Below are positions 55,601-58,600 of a DNA stretch of 64,000 nucleotides, one piece after another. Position numbers: made by a program. The DNA comes from Escherichia coli O157:H7. GTDB lineage: Bacteria > Pseudomonadota > Gammaproteobacteria > Enterobacterales > Enterobacteriaceae. The DNA is taken from assembly GCF_013167455.1 (NCBI RefSeq), contig NZ_CP038328.1. One strand, given 5' to 3'. Position 1 is the stretch's first letter. The number at the start of each line of letters is the position of its first letter.

Positions 55601-58600
55601 TCGGCTGGTGAAGGATGTCGATGATTTTGTTGCGTCAGCGGTTGTTTTGTATGACCAGATGAATCGCGGCGGCCCGGCAGGGAATGCTGTGGTGATGCAC
55701 TAAAAGCACGGTGTTCGGGGGTTTTATGAGCAGCAAGCTTCATGGTCTTGTCTGGGAAGGGTGCGCCTTCACCGGCATGATCTTATCCAGGGTGGCGGTT
55801 ATGGCCCGTCTTGCAGACTACAGCAATGACGAGGGCGTGTCATGGCCTGCCATTGAAACTATCCGGCGTCAGATCGGTGCAAGAAGTGAATCCACAGTGA
55901 AATCGGCTATTGCAGAACTGGCGAAAGAGGGCTGGCTGACGAAGGAAGAGCGTAAGGTCGGTGGGCGTAATGTAAGCAATATCTATCGGCTTAATGTGGA
56001 AAAACTCGAAGCAGCTGCTGCGGCGGCGCGTGAGTCATATAAACCGAAAAGAAAAATTAGCCCGGCAAAAAATGACCCGTTAACAGTTGCCCCGTCAAAT
56101 ATTGCCCCCTCAACGGTTGACCCGTCAAATTTTGATGGATCAACTGTTGATAACAAACTGCCGATTAGGGGGGCGATGATTGACCCCGATCCGTCAGTAT
56201 TAAAACCTGATCCGTCAGATAAAAGATCTTCTTGTCCGGACGCTTCGCAACCGGACCCGCAGACGGCTGAACAGAATTTTTTAACCCGACACCCTGACGC
56301 GGTTGTGTTCAGTGCGAAAAAACGCCAGTGGGGAAGTCAGGAAGATTTGGTGTGCGCACAGTGGATCTGGGGACGAATCGTGAGTCTTTACGAGCAGGCG
56401 GCCAGCGATGATGGCGAGATCACGAGACCGAAAGAACCCAACTGGACTGCATGGGCCAATGACGTGCGGACAATGCGGATGCTGGATGGCAGAACTCACA
56501 GACAAATTTGTGAAATGTTTGGGCGTCTCCAGCGGGATTCGTTCTGGGTAAAAAACATCATGAGTCCGGCAAAACTCCGGGAAAAATGGGATGAACTGGT
56601 TATCCGCCTGGGGCGTTCGCCCGCGCAGCGTTGCGTGAATCACATTTCTGAACCGGACACTGAAATACCGCCGGGATTCAGGGGGTGACGTGTCATGAAA
56701 AACATTGCGGCAGTTGGGGTTCTTGAACGTATTCGCAGACTTGCACCACAGGGGGCGGTTCCACCGTACCGGACGGTGGAGGAGTGGCGGGAATGGCAAC
56801 TTGCTGAAGGACGAAAACGCAGCGAGGAGATTAACCGCCTGAATCATCAGGTGCGGGTTGAAAAAATCCTGAACCGTGCGGGCATCCAGCCGCTTCACAG
56901 GAAGTGCTCATTCGGGAACTACCGGGTGCAGAACGACGGTCAGCGCCATGCTCTGAGCCAGGCGAAATCCATTGCCGATGAATTGATGACCGGATGTACA
57001 AACTTCGTGTTCAGCGGTAAACCTGGTACCGGTAAAAATCACCTGGCAGCAGCGATTGGCAATCGGCTGATGGCGAAGGGGAGAAGCGTGATTATCGTCA
57101 CCGTGTCCGATGTCATGAGCGTGTTGCATGACGGCTACGACAACGGCCAGTCCGGGGAAAAATTTTTACAGGAGCTTTGTGGAGTTGACCTTCTGGTCCT
57201 TGATGAAATTGGCATGCAGCGGGATACGCGCAACGAGCAGGTCACGCTGAACCAGATAGTCGACCGCAGAACGGCTTCGATGCGTAGTGTCGGAATGCTG
57301 ACGAACCTGAATCACGCAGCGATGAGCACACTCCTCGGAGATCGGGTGATGGACCGTATGACCATGAATGGTGGTCGTTGGGTGAATTTTAACTGGGAGA
57401 GCTGGCGGTCAAACGTTGGACGTCAGGGTATGTGAGAATTTTTGACGAGGTAAATTTTCGATGGAAACTGTATTGCATGCACTGAAAGCGATGGGAAAAG
57501 CCAATTCTGTTGAACTGGCGGCGCGGCTTGATATCAGCCGTGAAGAAGTTCTTAACGAACTGTGGGAACTCAAAAAAATGGCGTTGTTGATAAAACGGGT
57601 CACACCTGGTTTCTGGCTGTCGAAGGTGAAGCCGGGGTAACCGAAGGGCAGGCACTACAACCTGAAGCGCCGGATGTGGTAACCGAAGAGGTCGCTCCAA
57701 AAGTTACCGCAGACATGATGGTTGAGTTTATCGGTCAGGATGGTGCTAAAACGTGTGAGGAACTGGCGGGTAAGTTCGGCGTCAGTACTCGCAAGGTTGC
57801 TTCCACGCTGGCGGTGGTAACCGCAACGGGGCGGCTGGCACGCGTTAATCAGAACGGTAAATTTCGTTACTGCATGTCGGGGGGTAATTTACCAGCAGAT
57901 CCGAAAGCCGCGCCGGTAACGAAAAATGATGGTAAGGCCTTTCCTCAGCCAGCAGGTGCTGCGTTACCAGTCCGGGAAGCCGCAACACAGGAAGAAATTA
58001 AAACAGAAACTGTGGCGGACATTGTGCAGCCGTTGCCATCGTTTACCGAAACGCAAGCAGATGAGCTGATTTTTCCGTCCCTGCGCAGGGCAAACCTGGC
58101 GCTGCGCAGGGCGAAAAGTGATGTTCAGAAGTGGGAGCGAGTCTGCGCCGCGCTGCGGGAGCTGAACAAGCACCGGGATATTGTTCGACAGATTACTGAT
58201 TCTTCCCGCCGTGTTGTATCGGAAAAGTGATAGCCGGAGGCGCTTATGGCGAAACCTTTTACACACGAACAGCGTGAAGAACTGAAGGCCCGAATTATCG
58301 GGCTGGTACGCAAAAATGAACGCATGACGATATCACAACTGGAGAGAGCGACGGGAGCAGGCTGGCATTCAGTCAGACGTTGCCTTGTGGATGTACTGGC
58401 TTGTGGCGATTTATACATGCCCGGTAAATACGGTGTTTTTACATCAGAACAGGTGTATCGCGTATGGCGTAAGGCAGCGGAGAAAGCAACCGACCAGACA
58501 TTGATTCGAAAGTTACCAGACGGAGAAATACGCCGCTACGACAGACAACAGAACATAATCTGTGGCGAGTGCCGGAAGAGTGAAGTTATGCTGCGTGTAC

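Follow-up and report, generated by a model that had tools for sequence, protein, structure and literature searches.

The window analyzed here, a stretch of 64,000 nucleotides from the Escherichia coli O157:H7 chromosome, joins chromosomal backbone to prophage. By the EDL933 annotation of the equivalent region, positions 1 to about 48,500 are backbone (manA, fumBC, tus, rstAB, pntAB and ynfA-M), and positions from about 48,500 to 64,000 are the early region of prophage Sp12. The Sakai annotation of the locus reads "prophage Sp12, lambda-like phage", and Sp12 is a lambdoid prophage residing at the ynfA/Qin locus. Its early genes comprise a truncated int, xis, an exonuclease gene, dicB, ydfC, relBE, and cI-like, cro-like and ydaT-like genes. 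These are followed by an O-like gene, a DnaC-like gene, a DUF1627 gene, a DUF977 gene, a DUF551 gene, hokD, a DUF968 gene, rusA, Q and three tRNA genes.

The DUF1627 gene is distributed over two overlapping reading frames (Table 1). RefSeq (in EDL933 and NJS001) labels exactly this interval "DUF1627 domain-containing protein, frameshifted", while in the original Sakai annotation only the mechanical 222-aa ORF was called, as ECs_2274. The initial annotation of this DNA had described a GAGG motif ahead of the ATG, a 59-codon ORF, a 222-aa ORF in the -1 frame and an overlap of the two frames at CAAAAAAAT. All of these were confirmed by direct reading and by ORF listing. At the overlap, the zero frame reads CTC AAA AAA ATG. 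Alignment with intact proteins and predicted secondary structure indicate that codons 1-39 of the 5' fragment are authentic and correspond to helices 1-3 of a first winged-helix domain, while codons 40-59 form an out-of-frame tail. When the intact protein from strain PV15-279 was used as a tblastn query, residues 1-45 matched positions 57461-57595 in one frame, and residues 38-256 matched positions 57571-58227 in a single other frame with 99.5% identity. The addition of one A at the tract yields a 771-nt ORF encoding 256 aa, as found in the close intact orthologues, and bears out the proposal that a single-A change would produce one protein of about 256 residues. No Rfam family reached threshold within 57461-58230. 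An RNA gene or an antisense element in the interval was also considered and rejected; RefSeq does not annotate the antisense ORFs at 57389-57700 and 57964-58266, which are mechanical.

Table 1. Features of the frameshifted DUF1627/YdaW gene and of the Sp12 integrase remnant (positions refer to the 64,000-nucleotide window).
Feature	Position	Strand	Remarks
Whole frameshifted pseudogene, DUF1627/YdaW family	57461-58230	+	770 nt; RefSeq annotation, Pfam, PHROG
Shine-Dalgarno-like GAGG	57447-57450	+	10 nt before ATG 57461; same in intact orthologue PhiR5_2
5' fragment, 59-codon ORF	57461-57640	+	stop TAA 57638-57640
222-codon ORF, mechanical GTG start	57562-58230	+	-1 frame relative to the 59-codon ORF
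A7 run, site of 1-bp deletion	57572-57578	+	within CAAAAAAAT (57571-57579), overlap of both frames
3' fragment, homologous to intact residues 39-256	57574-58230	+	-1 frame; stop TGA 58228-58230
Contents of the 3' fragment (predicted, AlphaFold2 limits)		+	wing of first winged helix; linker; second winged helix (about 57709-57876); long C-terminal helix (about 58051-58224)
Junction peptide of the full-length protein (about 28 kDa)			ELWELKKNGVVDK
Frame switch in integrase remnant, G4 run	49119-49122	-	RefSeq frameshift flag

Every intact orthologue examined is a single ORF of 726-786 nt. The close ones with one 771-nt, 256-aa ORF are those of PhiR5_2, O103:H2 strain 20151001 (99.8% identical), O55:H7 strain CB9615, WCHEC000837, 2013C-4282 and PV15-279. 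At the tract, the close orthologues read CTC AAA AAA AAT GGC (Leu-Lys-Lys-Asn-Gly), that is, A8, with one exception reading AAA AGA AAT. A 771-nt ORF with AAA AAA AAT is also present in the Shigella phage 75/02 Stx. As the close intact orthologues carry A8, the A7 tract is the derived state, A8 minus one A. In a codon-level alignment of 12 orthologues, all 12 have the gene in a single frame, and the more distant members have AAA AAG GCT or AAG CGT CGT in place of the run, which is thus neither conserved nor required. A tblastn search with the intact protein found a homologue in 24 of 50,697 phage records, in each case as one piece that spans 96% or more of the query. The initial annotation had allowed for orthologues consisting of two separate genes at this place, but all those examined are single-frame. 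In EDL933, PhiR5_2, O103:H2, O55:H7, WCHEC000837, 2013C-4282, 75/02 Stx, Rac-SA53 and Rac 442/2 alike, the gene directly follows the replication genes (an O-like gene with a DnaC-like gene or P) and is itself followed by a DUF977/LygF gene.

The distribution of tract lengths was determined from exact matches of an 80-mer around the tract, together with its A6, A8 and A9 versions (79- to 82-mers), in 5,426 complete E. coli genomes, and the context of the matches was judged on sampled rows of the 662 matching genomes. With identical flanks, A7 was found in 286 genomes, A8 in 164, A9 in a single genome (MBT-5) and A6 in none. All sampled A7 matches are O157:H7-type genomes with the tract in the Sp12 context; one A7 carrier, NJS001 (from a pig, 5.1 Mb), has a record that states no serotype and an identical prophage context. 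All sampled imperfect matches span 81 nt, the A8 length. An 806-bp interval is 100% identical in hundreds of complete E. coli O157:H7 chromosomes, including those of EDL933, Sakai and TW14359. The A8 tract is found in other serotypes and in the earlier-branching PV15-279, a β-glucuronidase-positive O157:H7 strain of the CC A5 lineage, which gave rise to typical O157:H7 (CC A6) according to PMC6256406. PV15-279 has this prophage too, the neighbouring proteins being the same; its gene is intact with A8, and over 8,081 bp the strain differs from the window by only 4 substitutions and the tract indel. The simplest history suggested by these sequences would be that A8 became A7 through one deletion on the branch to typical O157:H7.

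The restored protein, represented by the PV15-279 allele (99.5% identical to the 3' fragment of the window), matches PF07789 (DUF1627) with an i-Evalue of 1.1e-99 over residues 91-245. The family phrog_630 matches both halves, with E=1.6e-131 for the restored protein and 3.9e-105 for the 222-aa ORF of the window. The Sp12 copy has the Pfam match and the gene position of the DUF1627/YdaW family, but it is not one ORF of about 240-260 codons; it is a pseudogene member of the family because its 770 nt are split over two frames. Beyond this family, HMM matches are sub-threshold and only to winged helix-turn-helix (wHTH) families (ArsR, MntR, MarR, TrmB, DeoR and similar). The NCBIfam search likewise gave only sub-threshold matches to wHTH regulators, and direct sequence matches to solved structures were only marginal (best E 0.029, to the winged-helix region of Lhr helicase).

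An AlphaFold2 model, built from a shallow alignment of 10 close sequences (mean pLDDT 63, pTM 0.27), is confident only for the individual domains. It predicts a first winged helix at residues 1-52 (pLDDT 80-87; helices 4-11, 16-23 and 27-39, strands 13-15, 43-46 and 49-52), a second at residues 84-139 (pLDDT 75-79), and a long C-terminal helix of 58 residues (198-255), with disordered linkers. In a Foldseek search against the PDB (best E 2.8e-4), the matches included ScpB, ESCRT-II, SelB winged-helix domains, MarR-like proteins, Z-alpha and FeoC. Together with the sub-threshold HMM matches, these predictions support the winged-helix-like N terminus that had been proposed for the 59-codon ORF. 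On this model, the intact protein is a predicted tandem winged-helix protein of the YdaW family with a long C-terminal helix. It resembles known tandem winged-helix proteins (ScpB, ESCRT-II Vps25 and the SelB C-terminal domains, with MarR/ArsR-type wHTH units) in having two predicted wHTH units, but it does not belong to any of them at the sequence level and adds the C-terminal helix and disordered linkers. A literature search on DUF1627 yielded only incidental mentions. YdaW is listed among predicted transcription factors (PMC9308461), and an overexpression screen scored ydaW as a "blocker" of the retron toxin RcaT (bioRxiv 10.1101/2020.06.22.160242). YdaW of the K-12 Rac prophage belongs to the same family and lies at the same position after the replication genes. 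However, ydaW is 561 nt long (186 aa, versus 241-256 aa in the family) and is short for another reason, whereas the Sp12 copy is frameshifted at codon 40.

Sp12 carries disabling lesions other than the DUF1627 break, as a pseudogene in a decaying prophage would lead one to expect. Its integrase gene is a frameshifted, C-terminally truncated remnant that is 100% identical in PV15-279; because the same broken remnant is present there, Sp12 was immobile before the DUF1627 gene broke. Asadulghani et al. reported that the repressor and the integrase of Sp12 are disrupted and several morphogenesis functions defective, and that its circularisation, replication and packaging were all undetected (PMC2669165). 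The PV15-279 copy of Sp12 also contains an IS3 transposase annotated with a true programmed frameshift and a pseudoknot. The DUF1627 break had been counted as the third homopolymer-associated frame break in this prophage. For the part of Sp12 within the window, one other frameshift flagged by RefSeq, that at the integrase G4 run, agrees with this count, but a third was not found. A candidate for it, an A8 run in the first codons of the cI-like gene (54870-54877, minus strand), was rejected; it is in frame (ATG CAA AAA AAA GAA) in an ORF annotated as intact. A search of the 64-kb window with the intact protein revealed no further DUF1627 copy. Across whole O157:H7 genomes, there are 3-6 matching places per genome for the DUF1627 gene, and strain SS17, which carries the A7 allele, has an intact 771-nt paralogue in another prophage.

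Taken together, the locus is very probably a recently inactivated gene, an ordinary frameshift pseudogene that arose when a defective prophage lost 1 bp. Typical O157:H7 descends from an ancestor whose Sp12 DUF1627/YdaW gene had an in-frame A8 tract. One A then dropped out, most probably because replication slipped on the homopolymer, and the A7 tract passed on to all descendants. Translation from ATG 57461 should quit the authentic frame once past Lys39, where the domain-1 recognition helix ends, and should run through 20 unrelated residues to the stop at 57640. Because the frameshift falls right after this helix, the 59-aa product would lack the wing and everything downstream; the domain-1 wing, the second winged helix and the C-terminal helix would be made only through an occasional slippage error that is not programmed. 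The loss was probably tolerated, since Sp12 was already immobile through its broken integrase and an intact paralogue lies elsewhere in the genome. With the prophage immobile and a paralogue such as that of SS17 present, it is plausible that selection on the Sp12 copy was relaxed.

A counterpoint is that the -1 frame is still open and nearly unchanged over 657 nt, with 99.5% identity to PV15-279. This is expected for a recent mutation, but it is also what a still-used gene would show. It is conceivable, though distinctly unlikely, that the break was not neutral: either loss of the protein was selected in the ancestor, or slippage at A7 maintains a low but relevant level of the full-length protein. 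Loss might have been selected if, for example, a host defence or regulatory system is disturbed by the protein, a possibility hinted at by the "blocker" result with ydaW. If the slippage version were true, the gene would be strongly down-tuned but not dead.

We consider it very unlikely that the A7 run is a programmed site, at which -1 ribosomal frameshifting or addition of an A by RNA polymerase would give a regulated 256-aa protein beside the 59-aa product. The exact wild-type ...LKKNG... sequence would be regained if P-site tRNA-Lys slipped on AAA AAA A or if the transcript had one extra A (+1A). Poly-A runs are known slippery sequences, and in Buchnera, too, transcriptional slippage at poly-A tracts rescues frameshift "pseudogenes". 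For E. coli, Baranov et al. (2005, PMC1088944) argue that such rescue applies to some "pseudogenes" with A9 runs. The Sp12 gene resembles those slippage-rescued genes in having a single-base indel in an A run and two overlapping frames, with one A inserted in the mRNA sufficient to restore the protein. However, their runs are at least 9 long (8 in some IS elements) and slip efficiently, while the Sp12 gene has only A7. Documented productive transcriptional slippage in bacteria involves A9, or A8 in some IS elements (PMC1088944), and bypass of an indel by E. coli RNA polymerase is reported to take a minimum of 7 T "and even more adenine residues" (PMC6260861); going by these two statements, A7 is shorter than the productive runs.

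Like the programmed -1 ribosomal frameshift sites of the dnaX/IS3 type (A_AAA_AAG with flanking stimulators), the junction is an A-rich run of lysine codons, and the downstream frame is -1. Unlike them, the Sp12 gene has neither the X_XXY_YYZ register nor a downstream structure, and neither its layout nor the motif is conserved. The in-register heptamer is C_AAA_AAA, so the upstream tRNA would have to re-pair on CAA, and only one of the two tRNAs re-pairs fully. In the 82 nt downstream (57579-57660), the folding energy is -23.2 kcal/mol versus a mean of -22.7 for shuffled sequences (z -0.17), giving no sign of a stimulatory RNA structure. Moreover, among the sampled genomes the two-frame layout occurs in one clone only, in Sp12 of typical O157:H7. 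All other orthologues examined, including the 24 phage records, are single-frame, and the A run is not conserved at the nucleotide level. Programmed -1 ribosomal frameshifting was thus rejected on register, downstream structure and conservation, and programmed transcriptional slippage on run length and conservation. The initial annotation had proposed ribosomal or transcriptional slippage and had suggested comparing A6 with A7 among orthologues. That comparison decides against programmed slippage, the relevant contrast being A8 (intact) versus A7, and the proposal is not supported by a short, unconserved run found in one clone without a slippery heptamer or a structure. Trace or low amounts of the full-length protein might still arise by spontaneous slippage, because a single P-site slip or a +1A transcript regenerates the wild-type sequence.

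It is extremely unlikely that the run serves as a contingency locus, a reversible switch between A7 and A8 that frequently silences and restores the gene in the population. At 7-8 residues, the run is short by the standards of phase-variation tracts in E. coli. Between the same flanks, tracts of A7, A8 and, once, A9 are seen, so the run can both lengthen and shorten. Yet the lengths sort by lineage and not within lineages, the sampled typical O157:H7 genomes all having A7 at the locus, and among the 5,426 genomes A9 appeared once and A6 never with exact flanks.

Gene fission is exceedingly improbable as well. It would mean that the 59-aa peptide and an internally started C-terminal protein (e.g., from ATG 57714, comprising the second winged helix and the long helix) are both functional. 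The Pfam DUF1627 domain covers only residues 91-245, and PHROG families match the fragments (phrog_16668, which matches the 59-aa peptide end to end, and phrog_11856). However, these families are most simply explained as annotations of the same kind of broken gene. No Shine-Dalgarno-like sequence precedes either GTG 57562 or ATG 57714, and the 59-codon ORF stops 74 nt upstream of the latter. Two annotated ORFs are found in no orthologue examined, the original Sakai annotation having just the 222-aa ORF.

A homopolymer sequencing or assembly error, a concern raised at the outset, is already refuted: although homopolymer length mistakes are common on some platforms, and the single A9 genome (MBT-5) could be one, the identical A7 80-mer recurs in 286 complete genomes that many laboratories assembled independently, including Sakai and EDL933, and because these assemblies agree the A7 length is genuine.

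The frameshifted pseudogene is itself a known feature, as RefSeq annotates it independently and the prophage has long been known to be defective. What is added is one precisely dated lesion in the decay of Sp12, the change from A8 to A7 between β-glucuronidase-positive and typical O157:H7, and this lesion could serve as a lineage marker. The locus also offers a caution: two frames that meet at a homopolymer and join into a clean restored reading resemble recoding, while the orthologues here point to a mutational hotspot. The more interesting question, with which the broken Sp12 copy is of no help, is what role the intact DUF1627/YdaW family plays in the many lambdoid phages that carry it.

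The truncated first ORF of the DUF1627/YdaW-family pseudogene (ORF1, 59 codons, of which codons 40-59 are the out-of-frame tail) was matched from end to end, tail included, by the 59-position profile phrog_16668 (E 1.4e-40). For phrog_11856 and phrog_29124 the matches were confined to parts of this protein's C-terminal region. All three families look like gathered fragments of broken DUF1627 genes, not independent proteins. A tract of nine A residues with identical flanks was found in 1 of 5,426 genomes, that of strain MBT-5 (NZ_CP058682.2, 2508595-2508676), and no other; either the orthologue there has undergone an independent +1 frameshift, or the homopolymer was misassembled.

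Other homopolymers are present in Sp12, the defective lambdoid prophage that carries this gene. Within the portion of Sp12 that the window covers, the longest is a G10 run, which is likely to be an indel hotspot. An A8 run, in frame within the cI-like gene, is potentially another such hotspot at the 5' end of that gene; the Sp12 repressor has been described as disrupted (PMC2669165). The RNA families matched in the prophage (DicF, sok and STnc100) fit a Qin-like prophage located at ynfA.

Features of the Sp12 prophage in the window
Feature	Position	Strand	Remarks
Integrase remnant	48517-49223	-	frame switch at GGGG, 49119-49122
DicF sRNA	52682-52733	-	Rfam match
cI-like gene	54510-54881	-	annotated intact
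A8 run	54870-54877		directly after cI-like start codon; - strand sense ATG CAA AAA AAA GAA
sok antitoxin RNA	59579-59753	+	Rfam match; adjoins hokD
G10 homopolymer	62999-63008		between tRNA Ile-Arg-Arg cluster and TerB-family gene downstream of Q
STnc100	63692-63864	+	Rfam match

The integrase remnant carries two lesions: a frameshift at the G4 run, where the reading passes from ...RENLG in one frame to VPDTAKNRRVAGELRASV... in another, and a truncation that removes the C terminus at the prophage/chromosome junction. The initial annotation had counted the DUF1627 tract as the third homopolymer-associated frame break in this prophage; the G4 frame switch is probably one of the others. PV15-279, a β-glucuronidase-positive O157:H7 strain with the same prophage and an intact DUF1627 gene, has this integrase remnant at 100% identity, so the broken integrase is older than the DUF1627 break.

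Two insertions lie in the Sp12-like prophage of PV15-279 (intervals 2929-4142 and 5159-6501 of the PV15-279 locus). One belongs to the IS3 family and truncates the gene for the exonuclease; the other, of the IS66 family, follows the integrase remnant. Both elements are absent from the window, and thus prophage decay in the window lineage and in the PV15-279 lineage has been independent since they split.
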